From sequence record PX418923.1: 50,008 bases of DNA, one strand, 5' to 3'. The notes below the pieces were generated by a model, which was not told where the DNA came from, searched no databases, and was given only the letters and a program-made list of their open reading frames with translations. The DNA is from a phage. The position numbers were made by a program, and so were the translations under genes. Shown in pieces: positions 2,864 to 40,547 of the stretch (position 1 is the first letter of the stretch; each line of letters opens with the position of its first letter).

Positions 2864-3026
2864 GGTATATGTCCTATTTGAGGAAAGAGGGTTTGAATCT
2901 CCAGTCATAGTCGGTATTTATAAGAACAAAGATAAAGCCCAGGCAGAAGCTGATAAATGTAATGATAAAGCGCAATACCATTATGAACCGTATCAATATG
3001 TTAGGGAGCATGACCTAATTGATTGA
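2856..3026 (+). CDS. Small hypothetical protein (56 aa)
   Basis: ATG overlapping upstream stop; ends overlapping DNA polymerase start; below ORF-track size cutoff. Confidence 0.3.
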   Translation: MSKVYVLFEERGFESPVIVGIYKNKDKAQAEADKCNDKAQYHYEPYQYVREHDLID

Positions 3027-4875
3027 CATTTTTGACATTGAAGCTGATGGCTTGAAGCCTACTAAGATTCATTGTCTTTCTGTCATGAAGAATGGTAAAC
3101 TCTTTTCAACCACTGACTACGATAAGATGAGAGCGTTCTTTAGAAACGCTAAGATTATTGGTGGTCACAATATTTACAGGTATGACATTCCAAATATTGA
3201 GAGATTGTTAGGTATCAAAGTAAAGTGTAAACTTGTTGATACGCTACCACTCTCTTGGTATTTGGAGCCAGCTAGGAAGAGGCATGGCCTAGCTGAATGG
3301 GGTGAAGAGTTTGGTGTTCCTAAGCCGAAAGTCGATGATTGGGAAAACCTAGCCGTAGAGGAATATATACATCGATGTGAAGAAGACGTAAAGATTAACA
3401 CCAAACTGTGGGAACGCCAATGGAAACAACTCTTCAAGTTGTATGGTGAGCCAGATAAAGTTTGGAAGTTCATTGACTACATCATGTTCAAAATGGATTG
3501 TGCTGCTGAACAAGAGCGTAGTCGATGGAAGTTAGATGTAGTGCATTGTAAGACCACTTTAAAGAAACTAGAAAAGTTAAAAGAAGAAAAAGTAGAAGAG
3601 CTTAGATTGGCTATGCCTCCCGTGCCAGTAATGGCAAGTAAGGAAAAGCCTAAGAAGATGTATCTAAAGAATAAGCCAAACACTTTAAGCGAACAGGGGA
3701 AAGCTTGGGTTGCGTTGTTGAAAGAGCAGGGGCTGCCCGAAGATTACGAAGGAGTAGTTGAGTATATTAAGGATTGGAAGGAACCTAATCCTGGCTCACA
3801 CGAGCAAATTAAGTCTTGGTTGTACAGCCTAGGTTGGGTGCCAGAGACTTTTGCATATAAAAGAAACAAGGAAACTGGGGAAGTTAAGAAGATTGAACAA
3901 GTACAGCAAGATAAAACTCTTGGTCCTGGCTTGTGTGCTAGCGTTAAGAAGCTCTATGGTAAAGAGCCAAAGCTAGAAATTCTTGATGGACTCTCGATTC
4001 TAACTCACCGTATCTCCGTTCTAAACGGGTTCTTAAACAACGTGGATGATGAAGGTTATGTCCAAGCCAAAGTGCAAGGACTCACCAACACGTTGCGATT
4101 TAAGCATGAGGTGGTGGTCAACCTTCCGGGTGTTGACAAGCCTTATGGCGCTGATATACGTGGTTGCCTGGTTGCTCCTGAAGGTTATGAGCTGGTTGGT
4201 AGTGATATGAGCAGCTTGGAGGACAGATGTAAGCAACATTACATGTGGCCTTATGACCCTGAGTATGTCAAGGAGATGATGACTCCAGACTTTGATCCTC
4301 ACATTGACTTAGCGGTGTTTGCCAAAGCTCTAACTAAGCAACAAGCTGACGCTCATAAACGAGGGGAAGAAAACCACAAAGGCGTAAGGAAAACCTACAA
4401 GGCAGTTAACTACGCCGCCGTATATGGAGCTGGTGGTCCACGTGTGGCCATCACTGCTGGGGTAACCACGGATGAGGGGTACAAACTGGTAGATGCGTAT
4501 TGGCAACGTAACTGGTCAGTCAAACGTATTGCTGAAGACCAGATAGTTAAGGTGTGCAATGGAATGAAGTGGTTGTTCAATCCAGTTAGTGGATTCTGGT
4601 ACAGCTTACGTCATGAAAAAGATAGGTTCTCAACACTAAACCAAGGTACGGGAGTTTACTGTTTCGATACATGGATATGCAATTTTAGAAAGAAGCGACC
4701 TCAACTAACTGGTCAAATGCACGATGAAGTTATTTTGTGCATTAAGAAGGGTTACAGAAAGCAAGCTGAAAAGCTTCTTCGTGACGCAATTGAAGAGACA
4801 AACAAACAACTTAAATTAAACAGAGAGTTAGATATCTCCGTACAATTCGGTGATAGATACTCAGACATTCACTAA
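3019..4875 (+). CDS. Family A DNA polymerase (T7 gp5-like)
   Basis: N-terminus MIDIFDIEADG...KIHC resembles T7 DNA pol exonuclease motif I; polymerase motifs DMSSLEDR (A), RKTYKAVNYAAVYGAG (B), HDEV (C); TTG start directly after in-frame stop. Confidence 0.9.
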   Translation: MIDIFDIEADGLKPTKIHCLSVMKNGKLFSTTDYDKMRAFFRNAKIIGGHNIYRYDIPNIERLLGIKVKCKLVDTLPLSWYLEPARKRHGLAEWGEEFGVPKPKVDDWENLAVEEYIHRCEEDVKINTKLWERQWKQLFKLYGEPDKVWKFIDYIMFKMDCAAEQERSRWKLDVVHCKTTLKKLEKLKEEKVEELRLAMPPVPVMASKEKPKKMYLKNKPNTLSEQGKAWVALLKEQGLPEDYEGVVEYIKDWKEPNPGSHEQIKSWLYSLGWVPETFAYKRNKETGEVKKIEQVQQDKTLGPGLCASVKKLYGKEPKLEILDGLSILTHRISVLNGFLNNVDDEGYVQAKVQGLTNTLRFKHEVVVNLPGVDKPYGADIRGCLVAPEGYELVGSDMSSLEDRCKQHYMWPYDPEYVKEMMTPDFDPHIDLAVFAKALTKQQADAHKRGEENHKGVRKTYKAVNYAAVYGAGGPRVAITAGVTTDEGYKLVDAYWQRNWSVKRIAEDQIVKVCNGMKWLFNPVSGFWYSLRHEKDRFSTLNQGTGVYCFDTWICNFRKKRPQLTGQMHDEVILCIKKGYRKQAEKLLRDAIEETNKQLKLNRELDISVQFGDRYSDIH

Positions 4876-5051: not shown

Positions 5052-5773
5052 TGGCACTTAAAGCACGTAACATTCCGAAAGCTGGTGGCAAGGGTAGTGG
5101 TATGCCCAAACAACCTACTATGGAGCCGGGAACTTATCCGTCCCGTGTAGTACAAGTAATTGATATGGGCCTGCAACCACAGCGTCCTTATAAAGGTGAG
5201 CCAAAGAATCCGGCTTATGAGCTGATGGTCACGTATGAATGTCTTGATGAGTTCTGCGTAGATGAGAACGGTGTTGAAATGGAAGATAAGCCTCGTTGGA
5301 TTAGTGAGACTTTCCCTCTTCATAACATCGAAGCGGACCTTGCTAAGTCCACTAAACGCTACAAAGCTCTTGACCCTGACATGGTATATGATGGCGATTG
5401 GGGTGAAGTAGTAGGCACTCCGTGCATGGTTACCACCGTTAACAATGTTAGTGGTGATAATGTATACACCAACGTAGCTTCTGTCACTAGCATGCGTGCT
5501 CGTGATGCAGCTAAAGCTCCTGAGCTTATTAACGAGCCCAAGGTGTTTAGTCTTGATGAACCTGATGTGGATGTGTTCCGTTCCTTCCCTCAATGGATTC
5601 AGGACAAAATCAAAGGCAACCTAGAGTATGATGGTAGTGCCCTTCAGAAAGCCCTGGAAGGGGCTCCTAAGCAAGAAGAGAAGAAGGGTAAGGCTAACCC
5701 TAGGGTGGAGGAAGAAAACGCTCAGGAAGACTTCGTAGACGACGTACAAGGGGACGAGGACGTACCATGGTGA
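5051..5773 (+). CDS. Putative ssDNA-binding protein (gp2.5-like, acidic C-terminal tail)
   Basis: Position between polymerase and exonuclease; strongly acidic C-terminus ending in an aromatic residue (EDFVDDVQGDEDVPW); function inferred. Confidence 0.4.
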   Translation: MALKARNIPKAGGKGSGMPKQPTMEPGTYPSRVVQVIDMGLQPQRPYKGEPKNPAYELMVTYECLDEFCVDENGVEMEDKPRWISETFPLHNIEADLAKSTKRYKALDPDMVYDGDWGEVVGTPCMVTTVNNVSGDNVYTNVASVTSMRARDAAKAPELINEPKVFSLDEPDVDVFRSFPQWIQDKIKGNLEYDGSALQKALEGAPKQEEKKGKANPRVEEENAQEDFVDDVQGDEDVPW

Positions 5774-5940
5774 TCTATGTATGGCCTGATGGCTATTGGT
5801 TGTACGAATGGGCAGTAGAGGATAATGCCAGTCTTGCGAGGCTGGCTAGTCCTCACAAGAAGATTGATCTAGACAATCATCTAGACTACAATCTCACTGT
5901 AGATGAAATTAACGCATGTATTGAGGCATTGGATGAGTAA
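5767..5940 (+). CDS. Small hypothetical protein (57 aa)
   Basis: ATGGTGA start-stop overlap with upstream gene; ends at TAA 5938-5940. Confidence 0.3.
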   Translation: MVIYVWPDGYWLYEWAVEDNASLARLASPHKKIDLDNHLDYNLTVDEINACIEALDE

Positions 5941-6244
5941 GAAAATTGTTAATGTTGGTGACTTCGTAGAGGTATTGGATAGCAGCTTTGTTGAACATGG
6001 CGTCAAGAAGGGTGACTTCATTTACATTGCTGGTGACAGTATCGTAGCTGTTAGTGAGAAAGACCCTTACCAACTTCGTCGGCTGTTCGTAGCTGCATTC
6101 ATGGAAGATGGTCACATCTTGGCAGATCGTAAACCTTTCCTTATTGATGGTAAGCGTTGTAAGCCTGTTTCTGAAGCTAAACAACAGAAGTTTGCAGAGA
6201 AGATGAAACAAGATTTCGGTGAAAAGAATGAAGCCTCTAATTGA
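5933..6244 (+). CDS. Hypothetical protein
   Basis: ORF-track ORF 5903-6244; internal ATG at 5933 has GAGG RBS. Confidence 0.45.
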   Translation: MSKKIVNVGDFVEVLDSSFVEHGVKKGDFIYIAGDSIVAVSEKDPYQLRRLFVAAFMEDGHILADRKPFLIDGKRCKPVSEAKQQKFAEKMKQDFGEKNEASN

Positions 6245-7781: not shown

Positions 7782-8541
7782 TATCTACATCATTGACATT
7801 GAGACAGCACCTAAAGTAGCTTACGTCTGGCGTTTCTTCAAGGAAATGATTGGAGCTAAACAAGTTCTTGATCATGGTCATATCATGTCCTTCGCGGCTA
7901 AGAAGTTGGGGAGTGATGATATCATCTATGTCGAGAATAGGAAAGATGATGATAAGTACATCACCCAAGAACTGATTAGAGTACTGGACGACGCTGATAT
8001 TGTTGTTGCACATAATGGTGACAAGTTCGATCTTCCAACAATTAATGGCCGTGCTCTTGTACACGGCCTTAAGCCGCCGTCTCCATACAAGACCGTAGAC
8101 ACTCTCAAGGTAGCTCACAGAGAGTTTAAGTTTGAACGTAATAATCTGGAGTATCTGGCACACGTTCTTGGCTGTGCCCCTAAAGGAGGTCATGCTAAGT
8201 TCCCAGGGTTTGAGTTGTGGCTTGAGTGTCTTCGACAGAACGATGAAGCTTGGGCTGAAATGAAGGAATATAACATTCAAGACGTTCTAACTCTCGAAGA
8301 AGTATATCTTAAGATGAGACCTTGGATTCGTAACCATCCTAATGTAGGAGTGCTAGAAGAGAATGCTGCCCATACCTGCCCGAAATGTGGTTCAAAACAT
8401 CTTGTCAGCAGGGGTTATACCACAACTTCGGTTGGAAAATTCCAGCGATACAGGTGCTCAGATTGTGGCGGTTGGTCTAGAGCTCGATACACTGTCTACC
8501 CCAAAGACAAACGACAAGCTCTGCTCGTCAACGCGGTGTGA
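7774..8541 (+). CDS. DnaQ-like 3'-5' exonuclease with C-terminal zinc ribbon
   Basis: Exo motifs IIDIET, HNGDKFDLP, YNIQDV; C-terminal CPKCG...CSDCGG. Confidence 0.7.
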   Translation: MPNIYIIDIETAPKVAYVWRFFKEMIGAKQVLDHGHIMSFAAKKLGSDDIIYVENRKDDDKYITQELIRVLDDADIVVAHNGDKFDLPTINGRALVHGLKPPSPYKTVDTLKVAHREFKFERNNLEYLAHVLGCAPKGGHAKFPGFELWLECLRQNDEAWAEMKEYNIQDVLTLEEVYLKMRPWIRNHPNVGVLEENAAHTCPKCGSKHLVSRGYTTTSVGKFQRYRCSDCGGWSRARYTVYPKDKRQALLVNAV

Positions 8542-8542
8542 T

Positions 8543-8770
8543 ATGAATAACTTTGAACATTACTTTAAACGGTTGCCGACTGGACTCACACATGTTGATG
8601 TGTATTGGGTGCTAAGATTGTTTCGTGTAAATGACCCATGTATACAACATGCAATCAAAAAACTGTTAGTGCCAGGAAAGCGTGGATCTAAGAGTGAGCA
8701 CAAGGATGTTGAAGAAGCAATTGCTTCCTTGCAACGCTTCTTGCAAATGGAGAAGGAGGATGTGTTTTAA
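8543..8770 (+). CDS. Hypothetical protein (75 aa)
   Basis: ATG immediately after exonuclease stop, in frame with ORF-track ORF 8363-8770. Confidence 0.4.
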   Translation: MNNFEHYFKRLPTGLTHVDVYWVLRLFRVNDPCIQHAIKKLLVPGKRGSKSEHKDVEEAIASLQRFLQMEKEDVF

Positions 8771-9117
8771 TGAGGCTAATAATCGCCGGGAGTAGGGATA
8801 TAACCCCATTGCAATTCGAAGAGGCTTTGCAAGAAATCCGACAGGATTTTGAAATGGAAGTAACGGAGATTGTTTCAGGAAATGCCAGGGGAGTCGATAA
8901 ATATGGCGAACAAGTTGCTAAAGAGAATTCATTGGCGTTGACAGTTTTTAAGCCGGACTGGTCTAAAGGTAAGTCAGCAGGCATGATCAGGAATAAGGAA
9001 ATGGGTGATTATGCTGACGCACTGTTCGCAGTGTGGGATGGTCAGTCAAAAGGGACCAAGCACATGATTGATTATATGATTGGGTTGGGCAAACCTGTGC
9101 AGGTAGTAATCAAATGA
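8770..9117 (+). CDS. SLOG/DUF2493-family Rossmann-like protein (DprA/LOG-like)
   Basis: GSRD...SGNARGVD...RNKEM...AVWDG.SKGT pattern recalled for DUF2493; ATGA overlap with next gene. Confidence 0.55.
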   Translation: MRLIIAGSRDITPLQFEEALQEIRQDFEMEVTEIVSGNARGVDKYGEQVAKENSLALTVFKPDWSKGKSAGMIRNKEMGDYADALFAVWDGQSKGTKHMIDYMIGLGKPVQVVIK

Positions 9118-9788
9118 CACAGATTGAGGTTAAACTTGTAGATAGTATGGGGGACGATTTACGTGTCTGTAACGCTGCCCGCGTCTCCTTCAATAAATGG
9201 AAAGAAGAGCTAGACGAGGGTGATGTTGGTCTTATTAATTACCTTGCTCGTCATGAACATTCTAGTCCTTTCCGTCATACAGCAATTACCCTTAGTTGTA
9301 AGGCTCCGGTCTTTCTTGCTAGGCAACTCGGCAAGCACCAAGTTGGGCTCTCTTGGAACGAGGTATCACGTCGCTACGTCGATGCTGGTATTGAATTCTT
9401 TGTTCCTGATAATTGGCGTAGTCGCCCTGATGGTTCCGTAAAACAAGGTAGCGGTGATGCCATCATTGATGAGTACACTGGTACAGATCAGGACGGAGCA
9501 TATGCTGGTTCTGTTAAGCAAGACTATAGATATGTCTTAAGCTATTTGATGCAAGTGTATGATGAGTGGATTAAGCATGGTGTAGCTCCTGAAATGGCGC
9601 GTATGGTTCTTCCACAGTCTATGATGGTTGATTGGATTTGGACTGGAAGCCTACCTGCCTTCTTCCATGTATGGCGTCTACGTATTGATAGCCACGCTCA
9701 GAAAGAAGCTCAAGAGTTTGCACAGAAGCTGGAAGAAGTTGTTCAACCCATTTTCCCACATTCTTGGAAGGCCCTTAAAAATGCTTAA
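9114..9788 (+). CDS. thyX: Flavin-dependent thymidylate synthase ThyX-like protein (divergent active-site motif)
   Basis: AARVSF...RHEHSSPFRH...SWNEVSRRY matches ThyX core, but the canonical RHR motif position reads GKHQ. Confidence 0.7.
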   Translation: MTQIEVKLVDSMGDDLRVCNAARVSFNKWKEELDEGDVGLINYLARHEHSSPFRHTAITLSCKAPVFLARQLGKHQVGLSWNEVSRRYVDAGIEFFVPDNWRSRPDGSVKQGSGDAIIDEYTGTDQDGAYAGSVKQDYRYVLSYLMQVYDEWIKHGVAPEMARMVLPQSMMVDWIWTGSLPAFFHVWRLRIDSHAQKEAQEFAQKLEEVVQPIFPHSWKALKNA

Positions 9789-10428
9789 ACCAACTAAAAT
9801 GCACGAGTTGTATGACCTTGCTCTACATGACCGCAAGAACATGCCTGTAGTGGCGTATGGAAGCGCTGGGACAGGTAAGACATATGGTGCTATTGGTCGA
9901 GCTGTATCGTGGCTAGAAACTAACCGTAAGAGCCGTGTAGTGATTGCCAGACCTAACGTCTCCTTCGCTGATACTAACGGGTTTCTGCCTGGCACTGAGC
10001 GAGAGAAGTTGGAGCCTTGGATTAGGCCCCTGCAACAAAACTTTATTGAACATGGTATTGGCATCCGGCACCAAGAAGACCTTGAGAAAAACCATCGTCT
10101 TCAATACTACATGCTTGAACACATTCAAGGGCTTACCTGGGATGACTCTCTCATCATTGTAGATGAATGTCAGAACATGTCCTTCGAACAGATTAAAGTG
10201 TTGGTTACTCGTGTAGGTGAGTACAGCAAACTTGTATTGTGTGGGGACATTGCTCAAACCTCTCCACTGTTTAAAAACTCTGGACTTGCGAGATTTATTG
10301 ATATGGTCGGTAGATATAACTTGCCTGTCCATACTATTCACTTCACTGTAGATGATGTTCTTCGTAGTGAAACTTGCAAGATGTTCATCCAAGCTTTTGA
10401 GGAAGAAGAACATGATCGCGGCATTTAA
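9781..10428 (+). CDS. phoH: PhoH-like ATPase
   Basis: Walker A GSAGTGKT, Walker B IIVDECQN; ATG 9781 overlaps thyX stop. Confidence 0.85.
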   Translation: MLKPTKMHELYDLALHDRKNMPVVAYGSAGTGKTYGAIGRAVSWLETNRKSRVVIARPNVSFADTNGFLPGTEREKLEPWIRPLQQNFIEHGIGIRHQEDLEKNHRLQYYMLEHIQGLTWDDSLIIVDECQNMSFEQIKVLVTRVGEYSKLVLCGDIAQTSPLFKNSGLARFIDMVGRYNLPVHTIHFTVDDVLRSETCKMFIQAFEEEEHDRGI

Positions 10429-10537
10429 TGCACTGCTTGAGTGTTTCGTAACAGGCTTATTCACAGCCCTAATCTTGCTAAGGCAGCACGTCTAGGCTAT
10501 ATGCCTATGTTAATGGTTGTTCAACAAGAGGAAAAGA

Positions 10538-10786
10538 ATGAAGAAGATGACACTGTTGAGCGCTAATTGGTGTGGACCATGTGGCGTAATCAAAGAATGT
10601 ATTGGTCGTAACGAGTATCAAGTAGAGGTTATCGACATTGACAAAAACCCTGCGGCTGCAAGAGAGTTCGGTATCAGAGGTATACCTACTCTAGTAGTGT
10701 TCACTGATGAAAAACCTGAGCTTGTAACAGGCGTACATAACATCCTAGTTAAGATGAAAGAGGTAAGTAATGCCCAGACTGCTTGA
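10538..10786 (+). CDS. Thioredoxin
   Basis: WCGPC active site; AAGAGG RBS 6 nt before ATG 10538. Confidence 0.8.
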   Translation: MKKMTLLSANWCGPCGVIKECIGRNEYQVEVIDIDKNPAAAREFGIRGIPTLVVFTDEKPELVTGVHNILVKMKEVSNAQTA

Positions 10787-11085
10787 GCCTAAGTATAGTT
10801 ATACCTTTGACTATCCTGAAGCCATTCAGTTTGCTAAGGTACAGTCATCTATCTTCTGGACTGATGACGAGATTAACGTAGAAAAAGATATTCAAGACAT
10901 TCGTGTAAACATGACAGAGGCGGAGGCGCATGGAGTCATTACAACACTTCGTCTCTTTACTTTGTACGAACTGGTTGCTGGTCGTGACTATTGGCTTGGT
11001 CGTGTCCTCAAAACTTTCCCTCGTCCTGATATTGAGAGGATGGCAGCTACTTTTGGGTTCTTTGAACTTAATGTTCACGCTCCGT
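10770..11085 (+). CDS. nrdB: Ribonucleotide reductase small subunit NrdB, exon 1
   Basis: N-terminal R2 homology through the iron-ligand E..H region (FFELNVHAP); unspliced frame stops at 11093. Confidence 0.7.
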
Positions 11086-11900
11086 CAAAATAGGGCGGCC
11101 TTTTCAAGAGATTGAAATTGAATAACTAACCTAAAAACGGGGAAGGGTTACTGACCTAATCCCGTGCTAACTCGCTATGAGATGTGTAACGACTATGAAA
11201 ATTAAAGACAAAAAAGAACTAATTAAGCTCATTTCCTTCATCACCATGGGTGATGGGTCTGTCTATAGGAACCGTGGTGCAGGCAACTGTCTGTTCTCCT
11301 TTTCCCAAACTGAAGACCACAAAGACTTCGTAGATTATGTGGGTTCCATCATCTCCAATATCACGTCTTACAAGGTTGTGGTAGATGAGAGAGAGGCACC
11401 AAGGAAATCTCTGCTTAAGTTGTGCACTCCTGTACATCCATACTTCAACAAACTGCGTGACCGGATTTATGTAGACTCCTACAAATCCATTGATCCACAT
11501 GCGTTGAAGATGTTAGACTTTGAAGCGTTAGCTATTTTGTATATGTGCGACGGTTGTTTGGGTAAGAGTATGAATTCGAACGGCTCTGTTGCTCGAACAG
11601 TGACACTTAACTTGTGCAGACTCTCCTACGGAGACCAGCTTCTACTGAAGAAGGCTCTTAAAGAAAAGTTAGACCTGGAATGGAACGTCGTTAAAACTGG
11701 TGGTAAATACCTGACTTTGCGTTTGCGGATGAAAGATTTCGACAAATTCATGCATGGTATCGAGCCATATATGCAAGAAAGCTTCCGATATAAACTTGAA
11801 ATTCGTACGGTTAGCCCCGAGAAATCGGGTGGTGAGATAGTCTGATCTATGTGGCAACACATAGGAGCCTGGCAGAAATGTCCAGGACATGAACGATATG
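11086..11900 (+). mobile_element. Group I intron in nrdB carrying a LAGLIDADG homing endonuclease ORF
   Basis: 5' exon ends in U (11085), intron ends in G (11900); the splice restores frame (codon T+TC=Phe) giving a 322-aa NrdB; intron contains P3-P7-like AAACGGGGAA...AAUCCCGUGCUAA and 3' GAGAUAGUCUG plus GNRA hairpin. Confidence 0.6.
11177..11845 (+). CDS. LAGLIDADG homing endonuclease (intron-encoded)
   Basis: Two LAGLIDADG-type motifs (LISFITMGDGSV and LAILYMCDGCLG). Confidence 0.8.
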   Translation: MRCVTTMKIKDKKELIKLISFITMGDGSVYRNRGAGNCLFSFSQTEDHKDFVDYVGSIISNITSYKVVVDEREAPRKSLLKLCTPVHPYFNKLRDRIYVDSYKSIDPHALKMLDFEALAILYMCDGCLGKSMNSNGSVARTVTLNLCRLSYGDQLLLKKALKEKLDLEWNVVKTGGKYLTLRLRMKDFDKFMHGIEPYMQESFRYKLEIRTVSPEKSGGEIV

Positions 11901-12553
11901 TCTACAATAAGATTAATGAAGCGCTTATGCTCAATACGGACGAGTTTTATCTTGCTTATGTTAACGATCCCATTCTAAAAGAACGTATGGAGTTTGTTGA
12001 CAGTTTGGTTGAGAAAGATGACCCACTGTACAGTCTTGGCGCTTTCTCTATGGTAGAGGGTGCTGTTCTGTACTCAAGCTTTGCTTTCCTTAAGCACTTC
12101 CAAGCTAAAGGTAAGAACAAACTGATGAACGTAGTGAGGGGTATTAACTTCTCTGTACGTGATGAGAACCTGCACTGTGAAGGTGGGGCTTGGTTGTTTA
12201 ATACTTTGAAGCAAGAGATTAAAGCTGAGGGTGGATACATCAACCCAAACCTTGAGTATGACTTGGCTAACTGTGCCAGAACTATTGCAGAGCATGAGTT
12301 CCGTATTGTTGACATGATCTTTGAGAAGGGTGAAATGGAAGGCATCACTGCTGAACAAATGAAAACCTTTGTCAAGTCTCGCGTTAATATTTGTCTTGCT
12401 CAGCTTGGTATTGATCCGGTGTTTGATGTAAGTAACAACATCATTGCTGAATGGTTCTATGACGGAATTAACGGAGTTATGTTCCATGACTTCTTCTCTG
12501 GCATTGGTAATAGTTACAACCGCAGTTGGGATGAGAAAGGATTTAGTTGGTGA
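11901..12553 (+). CDS. nrdB: Ribonucleotide reductase small subunit NrdB, exon 2
   Basis: Continues R2 homology (YNKINEA..., second iron-ligand motif RDENLHCEG). Confidence 0.7.
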
Positions 12554-14241
12554 GTACAATTTACGAGAAACTTTCCCAAGAGAGGAAAGAACTTCAAGCA
12601 CAAGGTCTTGTACCTGAATGGATGACTACTGGTGGATGGCAACTCTTTAAAGAAAAATATTTGTGGGAGGCGAGAGGACTTAAAGACACATACGAGCGTA
12701 TCGCTAAAACTGCTGCACAACATACTGACGACCCTGACAAGTGGGCCGCTAAGTTTTTTGATGTTCTTTGGCGCGGCTGGCTTGCTGCCTCTACTCCTGT
12801 TCTTAGTAACATGGGTACAATCAAAGGTATGCCAGTAAGCTGCTCTGGTCAATATATTGAGGACAGCATTGATGGATTCTATTCAGCCTACCACGAAACG
12901 GCTATGCTTACAAAGAATGGCTTCGGCACGTCGGGCTATCTCGGCGATATCAGACCTCGTGGAAGCATCATCAGTACCGGAGGAAAAGCTTCAGGTACTC
13001 TGCCAATCTTTAAGCATTTTGTCCAAGACATGCGAGATGTTGCACAAGGAACTTCTCGGAGAGGAGCATGGGCAGGGTATCTGCCTATTGACCACGGAGA
13101 CTTCTACGAAATCGTAGACTATCTAAAGAACTTCCCAGACGACCTTAACATTGGCTGGAACCTAAGCCAAGCGTTTATCGACCGTCTAGAAGCAGGTGAT
13201 GTAGACGCTGTACAACGCTTCCAGAGAGCAATGTATGTTAAGGCTATCACTGGTAAGGGCTATTTCTTTAAGCCTGACACAGTGAACGCTATGAACCCAC
13301 AGGTGTATAAAGACAGGGGGCTTGAAGTTAAAGCCTCTAACCTTTGCACTGAGATTACATTGTTTAGTGACGAAGACCATACCTTCACTTGTGTGCTCTC
13401 GTCTATGAATCTGGAGAAGTATGATGAATGGAAAAACACAGATGCAGTGTTCGTGTCTACAGTGTTTCTTGACTGCGTTGCACAAGAGTTTATCCGACTC
13501 GCCAAGGGACAAAAGGGTTTTGAAAAGAGTGTTAGATTCACTGAGGCAAGCCGGGCTCTTGGGCTTGGAGCCCTTGGTTTCCACACCTATCTGCAAGCTA
13601 AGATGATCCCACTTGAGTCTTTCGAGGCTCATATGACCAACCTAGAAATCTTCCAACATCTACATGAGGAGGCCACTCGTGCTACAAAGTGGATGGCGAA
13701 AGCTTGGGGCGAGCCTGAGTGGTGTAAAGGTTATGGTGTTAGGAACACTCATCTACTTTCTATTGCCCCTAACACATCTTCTGCTCTTATCTGTGGGGGC
13801 GTCTCCCAAGGTATTGAACCGGTGGTTGCAAATCTGTACAATCAACCAACCTCCGCAGGGGAAATTTACAGAGTCAATCCTGTCTTTCTTAACCTGGCAA
13901 AGAAACGTGTTGGGTGGACTGACGAACTCGTTAAAGAACTGACTGAAACTGAAGGTAGCGTACAACATCTTGATTGGCTTAGTCCGAAAGAGAAAGCTGT
14001 ATTCAAGACGGCTTATGAGGTGGATCAAGCAGCTCTGGTTAGATTAGCAGCAGCTCGACAGCCTTACATCTGTCAAGCACAGTCACTTAATTTGTTCTTT
14101 GACGCTGATGAAAGTGAAACCTACATTGCTCAAATCCATAAAGAAGCTCTACTCAATCCACAAATCAAGTCCCTCTACTACATGCGAACCAAAGCAGGAG
14201 TGCAGGCAAGTAAGGGGGAGTGTGAAGCGTGCAGTGGATAA
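12547..14241 (+). CDS. nrdA: Ribonucleotide reductase large subunit NrdA (class I, no ATP cone)
   Basis: ASTPVLSNMGT, NLCTEITLF active-site region, C-terminal CEACSG; TTG/GTG start overlapping nrdB stop. Confidence 0.85.
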   Translation: MVSTIYEKLSQERKELQAQGLVPEWMTTGGWQLFKEKYLWEARGLKDTYERIAKTAAQHTDDPDKWAAKFFDVLWRGWLAASTPVLSNMGTIKGMPVSCSGQYIEDSIDGFYSAYHETAMLTKNGFGTSGYLGDIRPRGSIISTGGKASGTLPIFKHFVQDMRDVAQGTSRRGAWAGYLPIDHGDFYEIVDYLKNFPDDLNIGWNLSQAFIDRLEAGDVDAVQRFQRAMYVKAITGKGYFFKPDTVNAMNPQVYKDRGLEVKASNLCTEITLFSDEDHTFTCVLSSMNLEKYDEWKNTDAVFVSTVFLDCVAQEFIRLAKGQKGFEKSVRFTEASRALGLGALGFHTYLQAKMIPLESFEAHMTNLEIFQHLHEEATRATKWMAKAWGEPEWCKGYGVRNTHLLSIAPNTSSALICGGVSQGIEPVVANLYNQPTSAGEIYRVNPVFLNLAKKRVGWTDELVKELTETEGSVQHLDWLSPKEKAVFKTAYEVDQAALVRLAAARQPYICQAQSLNLFFDADESETYIAQIHKEALLNPQIKSLYYMRTKAGVQASKGECEACSG

Positions 14242-39922: not shown

Positions 39923-40207
39923 ATGATTAGGCTCAACATGGACTTTCTTCTGCTCACTAGAGCAGCACAACAAGTTAAAAACTTTTGTAAACACACTGGA
40001 CTTGACGAAGGCGTCATTATGGAGACGCTCAGAATGCGTTGCGAAAGTCAATGGATTAAGCGGGAAGAAGATGGGAAGACTGTCACCTATGATGGTGAAG
40101 GTTGGATAGTTGATGACGATCCACACTTCATTGACATCGACAAGGCTTTAATCTGGGACAATACGCCAGAGGGCCACAACTATTGGTCTACTATCAGTCT
40201 TTATTAA
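39923..40207 (+). CDS. Hypothetical protein
   Basis: GGAGG RBS. Confidence 0.5.
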   Translation: MIRLNMDFLLLTRAAQQVKNFCKHTGLDEGVIMETLRMRCESQWIKREEDGKTVTYDGEGWIVDDDPHFIDIDKALIWDNTPEGHNYWSTISLY

Positions 40208-40215
40208 ATGAATGA

Positions 40216-40298
40216 GCGGGAGTAGCCCCGTCAGTCTTCTAAACTGATAAGGGTAATTGGAGCTGAAAATGTGAGTTCGAATCTCACCTCCCGCGCCA
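40216..40298 (+). tRNA. tRNA-like element with canonical T-arm, acceptor stem and encoded CCA but no recognisable D-arm
   Basis: 5' GCGGGAG pairs with 3' CTCCCGC; T-arm GTGAG-TTCGAAT-CTCAC; discriminator G and CCA at 40296-40298; internal hairpin TCAGT-CTTCTAA-ACTGA could be an anticodon arm (TCT). Confidence 0.4.
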
Positions 40299-40319
40299 CC
40301 CTACAAAATGGAGAACAGA

Positions 40320-40547
40320 ATGAGCGACTTCAAGAACTGGATAGAGGATGTAGGTATCGGCAAGTGCGGTAACGGATATTTTGTCCGAATTGATGGATGT
40401 GACATCTTTGAAAGTGTCAACCAGTACGGATGCAAGGCCCGCAGAAGCCTATCTATCGCAGAGTGTCTTGGTAGTAAGGAAGAAGCTAAAGCATCTGCCA
40501 TCGAATGGCTGGAGAAACAGCTAGCAAAGGTAAAGGCCACCGACTAA
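40320..40547 (+). CDS. Hypothetical protein
   Basis: Second ATG preceded by GGAGAA; the same AAATGGAGAACA..ATG cassette recurs at 40557. Confidence 0.45.
   Translation: MSDFKNWIEDVGIGKCGNGYFVRIDGCDIFESVNQYGCKARRSLSIAECLGSKEEAKASAIEWLEKQLAKVKATD

Follow-up and report, generated by a model that had tools for sequence, protein, structure and literature searches.

The phage sequence PX418923.1 (50,008 nucleotides (nt), one strand read 5' to 3'; this whole stretch is called the window here) carries an nrdB gene, coding for the R2 protein of a class I ribonucleotide reductase (RNR), that is interrupted by an insert with an open reading frame (ORF) for a LAGLIDADG protein. The locus therefore raises the question of whether nrdB is made whole by splicing or is expressed in pieces, and whether the insert is mobile. 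An earlier reading of the sequence alone (the sequence-only reading) had proposed that a group I intron which encodes a LAGLIDADG homing endonuclease splits nrdB, and the comparative, structural and protein evidence assembled here agrees with that proposal. We conclude, with a probability of roughly 0.9, that a mobile group I intron, T4 td-like and of subgroup IA, occupies positions 11086-11900 within the phage nrdB gene and carries an I-SceI-like LAGLIDADG gene.

Boundaries of the insert and the restored NrdB

Judged by its sequence relationships, the window belongs to a PA11/O4-like Pseudomonas aeruginosa podophage (Zobellviridae, Paundecimvirus). A megablast search of 50,697 phage records with window positions 10400-13000 matched 15 records of PA11/O4-like podophages, whose genomes measure 45-50.5 kb. 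In 13 of these related phages nrdB is an uninterrupted gene of 969 nt, and their records cover exactly 69% of the query, the share that is left once some 815 nt are taken away. In the intron-less nrdB of PP21 and O4 the junction reads GCTCCGT^TCTACAAT (a caret marks the insertion site), and compared with these alleles the insert is exactly 11086-11900, 815 nt ending in G11900, as had been proposed. Because the intron-less alleles fix the junction, and a shift of one base at either boundary breaks the match, the boundaries are without positional ambiguity.

Exon 1 (10770-11085, plus strand, as for all features below) comprises 105 codons and the first base of codon 106 (Phe) and ends in CAC GCU CCG U, that is, His104-Ala-Pro and the U. 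Exon 2 (11901-12553) supplies the last two bases of the Phe codon and runs from Tyr108 to the stop. R2 homology had been said to stop in frame at 11093; an in-frame stop is indeed found there, but the homology itself ends at U11085, and the frame continues for two codons to TAG 11091-11093. The resumption of homology at 11901 was placed correctly. Joining U11085 to U11901 gives, as predicted, the codon TTC and a 969-nt ORF for 322 amino acids (aa) with the motif HAPFY, and the resulting protein is identical to the NrdB of PP21. In Pfam searches the ORF 10770-11093 matched positions 5-96 of the Ribonuc_red_sm profile and the ORF 11849-12553 matched positions 98-279. Each piece is therefore one half of a single domain, and the halves adjoin.

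The alignment of the conceptually spliced protein with NrdB homologues, which had been recommended as a check, shows that it is closest to class Id R2 structures, with which it aligns end to end; H104 and Y108 fall on the reference His and Tyr. The insertion, at codon 107/108, is thus placed by homology between the codons of the metal-ligand His104 and the adjacent conserved Tyr108. As far as the systems compared here go, this His/Tyr position appears to be a new insertion site in R2 genes.

Two features of the metal site are recorded here in their own right. The first metal-binding motif (window 11067-11096, NrdB residues 100-108) reads E-L-N-V-H, that is, E-x-x-x-H, whereas the canonical R2 first motif is E-x-x-H, the class Id references have E-x-x-H, and HMMER places a one-residue gap in the alignment. 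The extra residue is common to all five intron-bearing nrdB lineages (the window and contigs L244, L245, L247 and L249; FELNVH, FELGVH, FETNVH, VELGIH). At the first ligand position the protein has Glu (YELVAG), which is also the residue of the class Id references.

A covarying group I ribozyme

The insert contains a ribozyme core that can be recognized without reference to the window itself. We built a family covariance model of the 5' half of the intron (P1-P7, 111 positions) from eight relatives, with the window excluded; the 5' half was used since a full-length model (about 250 positions) would exceed the calibration limit. Searched against the 50-kb window, this model gave a single match, at 11087-11197 on the plus strand (115 bits, E=2e-25), and a chance origin of the core is thereby excluded. 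The match also bears out the earlier perception of group I core-like sequence 5' of the ORF.

Nine mini-introns from which the ORFs had been deleted were then aligned: those of the window, four metagenomic nrdB copies, the nrdA of phage SPA01 and three class II RNR-like genes. Unaided, RNAalifold found P10, P2, P3, P4, P6, an ORF-closing helix at the P7.1 position, P8, P9 and P9.1, with compensatory changes in 34 of 50 pairs. The final structure consists of this prediction plus the P7 pseudoknot and minus one 2-bp helix (alignment columns 168-169/176-177), which was dropped because it clashes with P7; P1 and P5 stand outside the pair counts, as MAFFT scrambled P1 for the introns in other genes and misregistered P5, and both were read by hand. 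In the final structure 94.2% of cells are paired. Column shuffles reach 74.1%, and sliding the partners by 1-3 columns leaves 31-44%. Double-sided changes occur in 32 pairs, the structure has a covariation score of 0.616 against 0.208, and none of 500 shuffles matched the structure on any measure. The canonical P3-P8 order with the P3/P7 pseudoknot is present, and P3, P4, P6 and P8 show compensatory changes.

At the 5' splice site, P1 (11082-11098, read by hand) pairs C11082-U11085 of exon 1 with the guide G11095-G11098 (CCGU/GCGG), including a U11085-G11095 wobble, and the in-frame stop TAG 11091-11093 sits in its loop. The guide strand of P10 (UAGG, 11091-11094) pairs with U11901-A11904 of exon 2, with compensatory changes in four of five pairs in the RNAalifold structure. 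Here the window differs from the four other nrdB carriers in a telling way: its exon 2 starts with UCUAC instead of UUUAC, a synonymous change in the Phe codon, and its guide is AUAGG instead of GUAAG, so that a U-A pair of P10 has become C-G. The P1 guide likewise tracks the exon in the sister introns (GUGU/GCAC in SPA01, CCCU/GGGG in L013 and GAGCCU/GGGCUC in L087).

Downstream, P2 (UUUCAA-GAGA-UUGAAA, 11102-11117; strands 11102-07/11112-17) has a GNRA loop, and all six of its pairs covary across the nine introns. The 5' strand of P3 (CUAACC, 11126-11131) finds its partner across the ORF (GGUUAG, 11809-11814), with compensatory changes in five of six pairs; this 3' strand was identified by RNAalifold and by covariation. 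P4 (11137-42/11160-65), fully paired and with one compensatory change, encloses J4/5 AA and P5 (11146-48/11154-56), the latter read by hand and the same string as in T4 td. P6 (CUC-GCUAU-GAG, 11171-11181; strands 11171-73/11179-81) covaries in two of three pairs and contains an in-frame ATG at 11177. The 5' strand of P7 (GACUA, 11191-11195) pairs with UAGUC at 11838-11842, in agreement with the Rfam consensus GACUA/UAGUC, and A11195 is also the A of the endonuclease AUG.

On the 3' side of the ORF, the strand UUCG (11802-11805) of the ORF-closing helix pairs with U11196-A11199 (three pairs in RNAalifold, two of them compensatory, 100% paired); between P7 and P3', where the window has this short covarying helix, ORF-less relatives have 40-55 nt of P7.1/P7.2-type hairpins. 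P8 (CCCG-AGAAAU-CGGG, 11816-11829; strands 11816-19/11826-29) shows compensatory changes in three of four pairs. It is followed by J8/7 (UGGUGAGA) and the 3' strand of P7 (UAGUC), together 11830-11842, which agree with the Rfam consensus AGAUAUAGUC. The GNRA-capped hairpin that had been seen in the 3' segment is P9 (11847-11864; strands 11847-53/11858-64), with 7 bp, a GCAA tetraloop and compensatory changes in five of seven pairs; ATG 11849 lies in its 5' strand. P9.1 (11868-11886; strands 11868-72/11882-86) has a conserved loop, CAGAAAUGU, and compensatory changes in four of five pairs, and G11900, the last intron base, is the omega-G.

The likeness to T4 td/nrdB-type introns, which the sequence-only reading had suggested, holds for one of the two. 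The core matches that of the T4 td intron (subgroup IA2, encoding I-TevI) almost string for string, with near-identical AAACGGGGAA...CAAUCCCGUGC (P4-P5-P4') and GAGAUAUAGUCUG (J8/7-P7'), and these common core strings support a td-type subgroup IA assignment. The two introns further share a GNRA-capped P9, a host gene of phage nucleotide metabolism and a homing-endonuclease ORF. They differ in the host gene (td versus nrdB), in the nuclease (the GIY-YIG enzyme I-TevI versus LAGLIDADG) and in ORF placement, which in the window is between P7 and P3' with the AUG inside P7. The td ORF loops out of P6. The T4 nrdB intron, which carries a remnant of I-TevIII, likewise belongs to group I and interrupts a phage class I R2 gene, but it lies at about codon 220 (in the helix EAIRFYVSFA) whereas the window's lies at codon 107/108 between the ligand His and the Tyr, and its nuclease is an HNH remnant rather than a LAGLIDADG enzyme. 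A regular-expression search for the td-type P4-P5-P4' string found no match in the T4 nrdB intron.

The LAGLIDADG endonuclease

The ORF at 11177-11845 matches Pfam LAGLIDADG_2 (PF03161) with 88.5 bits against a cut-off of 25 (E=6.5e-25) and PHROG 11023, annotated as 'homing endonuclease with LAGLIDADG motif', and both motifs of the double-motif protein that had been described are present (...ITMGDGSV... and ...LYMCDGCLG...). In 33 homologues with identities down to 40%, D20-G21 and D119-G120 never vary, and D119 aligns with the second-motif Asp of I-SceI, the only relative in the PDB that is recognizable by sequence (E=0.008). As the acidic residues that end the motifs, D20 and D119, are invariant, the endonuclease looks active. 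An AlphaFold2 model based on 30 homologues (predicted local distance difference test 90.6, predicted template modelling score 0.86) has the order alpha-beta-beta-alpha-beta-beta-alpha twice (H-EE-H-EE-H), and its top Foldseek matches are I-SceI and I-WcaI (template modelling score 0.71-0.74, E ~1e-12), followed by other LAGLIDADG enzymes. I-SceI and I-WcaI, from the omega-intron of yeast mitochondrial large subunit rRNA, are likewise monomeric double-motif LAGLIDADG_2 proteins encoded by group I introns; they differ from the window's enzyme in sequence (about 20% identity), in having an organellar rRNA rather than a phage protein-coding host, and in their unrelated target.

The most likely start is ATG 11195, which gives an ORF of 11195-11845 (216 aa, or 222 aa from ATG 11177), because it is the annotated start in SPA01 and the first position conserved among the homologues. 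The ORF is located between the 5' strand of P7 and P3'; its last 12 or so codons overlap P3', P8, J8/7 and P7', its conserved C-terminal GG(D/E)IV is the translation of GGUGAGAUAGUC, and its stop UGA 11843-11845 follows directly on the 3' strand of P7. With the start codon in P7 and the ORF-closing helix, and the 3' end over P3'-P8-P7', ribozyme folding and endonuclease translation should exclude each other, which would amount to a switch between folding and translation.

Distribution and possible traces of mobility

The element is patchily distributed: among 16 related genomes (the window and the 15 records) it is present in three, namely the window, FBPa8 and HHBS10_2. The three introns differ at six positions, of which four are synonymous and one is missense in the ORF, and one lies in the unpaired 3' tail. 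Between the window and HHBS10_2 the intron is 99.3% identical, compared with 91.8% upstream and 87.4% for the bulk of exon 2. Mapping of the sites that tell the window from O4 shows that HHBS10_2 is window-like on both sides of an O4-like block (window 11965-12526) that covers most of exon 2; the block starts no farther than 64 nt 3' of the insertion site, and its end coincides with the nrdB/nrdA boundary. Nuclease-stimulated exchange would be expected to leave a breakpoint of this kind beside the cut site, but so might ordinary phage mosaicism. We had also considered the opposite arrangement for HHBS10_2, a window-like patch around the intron in an O4-like backbone, but the mapping shows it to be wrong. 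Exon 1 was rejected as a co-conversion tract, since it is 96.5-99.4% conserved in all relatives including the intron-less ones, and the 5' side is therefore uninformative.

Outside this group, a blastn search of the insert against the 50,697 phage records matched only FBPa8, HHBS10_2 and, over 133 nt of the core, SPA01. Exact core-motif scans of IMG/VR were far more productive than blastn for finding relatives: the core strings AAACGGGGAA...ATCCCGTGCTAA and GAGATAGTCTGATCT, the latter from the J8/7-P7' segment, each occur in >120 contigs, and about 300 homologues of the endonuclease were found in metagenomes.

Same-site copies in diverged phages and the alternatives

Four metagenomic nrdB carriers, the endonuclease homologues that were placed in their gene context, bear indirectly on the question of splicing. 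Their endonucleases are 65-76% and their NrdB proteins 38-69% identical to the window's, so that the endonuclease is better conserved than its host protein across these carriers, and the element lies at the identical site, CAYGCUCCGU^...G^UYUAC. In all four, joining the predicted sites restores an ORF of 318-335 aa with HAP^FY. In all four, too, the frame of exon 2 is closed by a stop 22-55 nt before the 3' splice site, no start codon lies between that stop and the splice site, and the next ATG in frame comes at +86 to +317, past the conserved Tyr. As synonymous saturation made the ratio of nonsynonymous to synonymous rates (dN/dS) not computable for most pairs, we give the raw proportions of nonsynonymous (pN) and synonymous (pS) differences: in exon 2, pN is 0.27-0.46 against a saturated pS of 0.68-1.0, which indicates that exon 2 is translated and under selection. 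An exon 2 that is selected yet has no start codon of its own in four carriers would require splicing.

Several observations weigh against our interpretation. An Rfam scan of the whole window at the gathering threshold did not detect the intron. The covariance check with Rfam Intron_gpI (RF00028) that had been recommended was consequently run as a permissive local scan; the full model aligned over 11076-11864 with E=1.7e-5, but its 30 bits remain below the gathering score of 50 bits, in contrast to the 115 bits of the family model. We attribute this shortfall to the cost of the ORF insertion of about 610 nt, because ORF-less relatives with the same core pass RF00028 (L029, 65.6 bits; L050, 63.7 bits; L022, 53.9 bits) and every ORF-bearing relative tested (SPA01, L013, L075 and L087) falls below the threshold. 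P7 (GACUA/UAGUC) is invariant in all nine introns and hence gives no covariation signal, P5 is supported by the hand alignment only, and P1 has just 4-5 bp. No Shine-Dalgarno sequence is evident before ATG 11177 or ATG 11195. ATG 11849 is in frame, 52 nt before exon 2, and could start a C-terminal fragment in this lineage. The mosaic of HHBS10_2 could be the product of ordinary phage recombination rather than of homing. Finally, phage RNR is possibly dispensable in the laboratory, and viability of the phage is thus no proof of splicing.

This last point leads to the possibility that the insert is a group I intron by descent that has lost splicing and mobility, a recent and as yet undecayed insertion that inactivates a dispensable nrdB. 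The phage RNR may be non-essential, and the three Paundecimvirus copies, being 99.3% identical, have had little time for visible decay. However, all elements of the ribozyme core are intact, none of the six differences among the three copies falls in a helix, and the guide of the window carries a change that compensates for a codon change in its own exon. Copies of much greater age, present at this site in diverged phages, also retain the ribozyme, the endonuclease and both exons intact, and we regard a loss of function as improbable.

We consider it still more improbable that nrdB is a gene in pieces that is never spliced, in which the insert is a homing-endonuclease cassette and two NrdB polypeptides (residues 1-107 and a fragment from ATG 11849) assemble, an alternative that had been raised together with the intron. 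Exon 1 does have its own stop at 11091-11093, the GenBank records of FBPa8 and HHBS10_2 give two coding sequences each for nrdB, and there is a precedent in Aeromonas phage Aeh1, whose nrdA is split by mobE without a ribozyme and yields two polypeptides that assemble (PMC3045599). Aeh1 resembles the window in that a homing-endonuclease gene interrupts a phage RNR gene, but in the window a complete covarying group I core flanks the endonuclease ORF, and the window's relatives have no start codon for the second piece. ATG 11849 itself is part of a covarying helix strand, the 5' strand of P9, and the relatives lack it. Four of the five lineages thus have no start codon for an exon 2 that is nonetheless under purifying selection, and the two polypeptides would be divided within a single helix, with a metal ligand on one side and the neighbouring conserved Tyr on the other. 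The reading frames already refute two further possibilities, an intein and a free-standing endonuclease gene flanked by paralogous nrdB fragments: the endonuclease ORF is set apart from each exon by stop codons and does not continue the nrdB frame. Inteins often contain LAGLIDADG domains, those of RNR genes among them (CB7 phage, PMC7344957), but the nrdB pieces are adjacent halves of one domain rather than paralogues, and the insert contains an RNA core.

A wider lineage in RNR genes

A group I intron spliced out of nrdB would have close counterparts in other RNR genes. In Pseudomonas phage SPA01 (Pakpunavirus, OP875100), nrdA is split directly behind the SNLC active-site codons by a group I intron of 865 nt (positions 2935-3799) that contains a LAGLIDADG ORF and is missing from the annotation; the record lists three 'hypothetical proteins', and the conceptually spliced gene encodes a 582-aa NrdA. 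This intron shares 77% identity with the window's over the 5' core and carries a homologous endonuclease (44%) at the same ribozyme position, but it splits nrdA instead of nrdB, and the guide sequences differ to match each exon. Class II RNR-like genes are split at NP^C (L075 and L013) and at GEP^YG (L087). Conceptual splicing gives long open frames in every nrdA and class II case, and every context examined for this design of ribozyme plus nuclease is a ribonucleotide-reductase gene. On some IMG/VR contigs we also noticed two group I introns within about 1 kb (L022, 7336-7598 and 8311-8570; L059, 6842-7073 and about 7998 onward), and the second intron of L059 has a 156-aa ORF at the same P7 position as the LAGLIDADG ORFs.

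Related combinations have been described elsewhere. In the Bacillus cereus group, the nrdF intron IVS6 is a group IA intron at nt 579 of an R2-type gene and encodes the GIY-YIG enzyme I-BthII (PMC2248736); it resembles the window's intron in type of host gene and probably in subgroup, and differs in its site and nuclease family. A 2025 survey of Bastillevirinae found one LAGLIDADG_2 case, of the same PHROG 11023 as the window's, in a group I intron of a DNA polymerase gene (PMC11878797), that is, in another gene and in Bacillus phages. According to a 2014 review of bacterial group I introns, the usual enzymes of phage introns are GIY-YIG, HNH, PD-(D/E)xK and EDxHD nucleases (PMC3984707).

Taken as one joint proposal, these relationships may point to an unrecognized but widespread td-like lineage with an I-SceI-like endonuclease at P7.1, specialized on the catalytic codons of RNR genes (nrdB His/Tyr, nrdA SNLC and class II NPC), with an AUG-in-P7 either/or switch and, in Paundecimvirus phages, a possible use as a weapon against intron-less relatives in co-infection. 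We put this forward tentatively and think it doubtful that all of its parts hold together.

Genomic context

The local gene order in the window is thyX, phoH, a small ORF, thioredoxin (10517-10786), nrdB and nrdA (12547-14241). In the GenBank records of FBPa8 and HHBS10_2 the two nrdB coding sequences stand separately and the intron is annotated in neither. The literature searched, a partial library in which absence is no proof, contained no description of an intron under Paundecimvirus, FBPa8, HHBS10 or PA11, and the intron goes unmentioned in the HHBS10_2 paper.

Other features of these genomes were noted in passing. A thyX-like ORF (224 aa; 9114-9788) and the longest phoH-like ORF (TTG start; 9628-10428) overlap by 160 nt in different frames; as annotated in relatives (for example, HHBS10_2, 5382-6029), the phoH-like gene overlaps the preceding gene by only about 8 nt. 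The nrdA of FBPa8 is about 680 nt shorter than the window's, with a blastn gap corresponding to window 13462-14140; a 984-nt 'hypothetical' coding sequence (8152-9135) stands in place of the 1.69-kb nrdA of relatives, and the genome is 45.2 kb compared with about 50 kb. The NrdA large subunit of FBPa8 may thus be truncated. A free-standing HNH homing endonuclease is annotated among the replication genes of FBPa8 (3395-3820) and HHBS10_2 (3097-3522), about 3 kb upstream of nrdB. Far from nrdB, an intergenic tRNA-like element occupies window 40216-40295 (plus strand) between the ORFs 39923-40207 and 40308-40547; it scores 44.3 bits with the Rfam tRNA model (threshold 29; fold z = -4.1) and has a 7-bp acceptor stem, a canonical T-arm, a shortened D-arm region and an extra arm of about 20 nt, while ARAGORN made no tRNA call across the whole window.

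Proposed splicing and homing, and their significance

From the anatomy of the intron we infer the following course of events. The exon end CCGU would pair with the internal guide GCGG to form P1, with the U-G wobble at the splice site, and an external guanosine bound in P7 would attack after U11085. The guide would then hold exon 2 through P10, and the exons would be ligated after G11900, which would restore the 322-aa frame of the class I R2 protein. When the endonuclease is made, it most likely cuts the intron-less nrdB of co-infecting relatives across CACGCTCCGT^TCTAC, and repair of the cut allele would copy the intron in, the process known as homing. The candidate target, CACGCTCCGT^TCTACAAT, is intact in the intron-less PP21 and O4.

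The element of the window adds to a well-known kind of selfish element. It is of modest additional interest because its nuclease family is rare, its target site new and its RNR-specialized lineage broad, and because it exposes a gap in annotation. No nuclease family has been reported less often in phage introns than the LAGLIDADG enzymes, and the His/Tyr site is in line with the rule that invariant catalytic codons are the targets of homing elements. As to annotation, the records of the sister phages call the pieces of nrdB hypothetical proteins or separate subunits, and join(10770..11085,11901..12553) restores the full enzyme; the default Rfam threshold will miss this class of ORF-bearing phage introns. 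Therapy cocktails include Paundecimvirus phages, and an active nuclease that cuts intron-less relatives could affect both competition and recombination within such cocktails.

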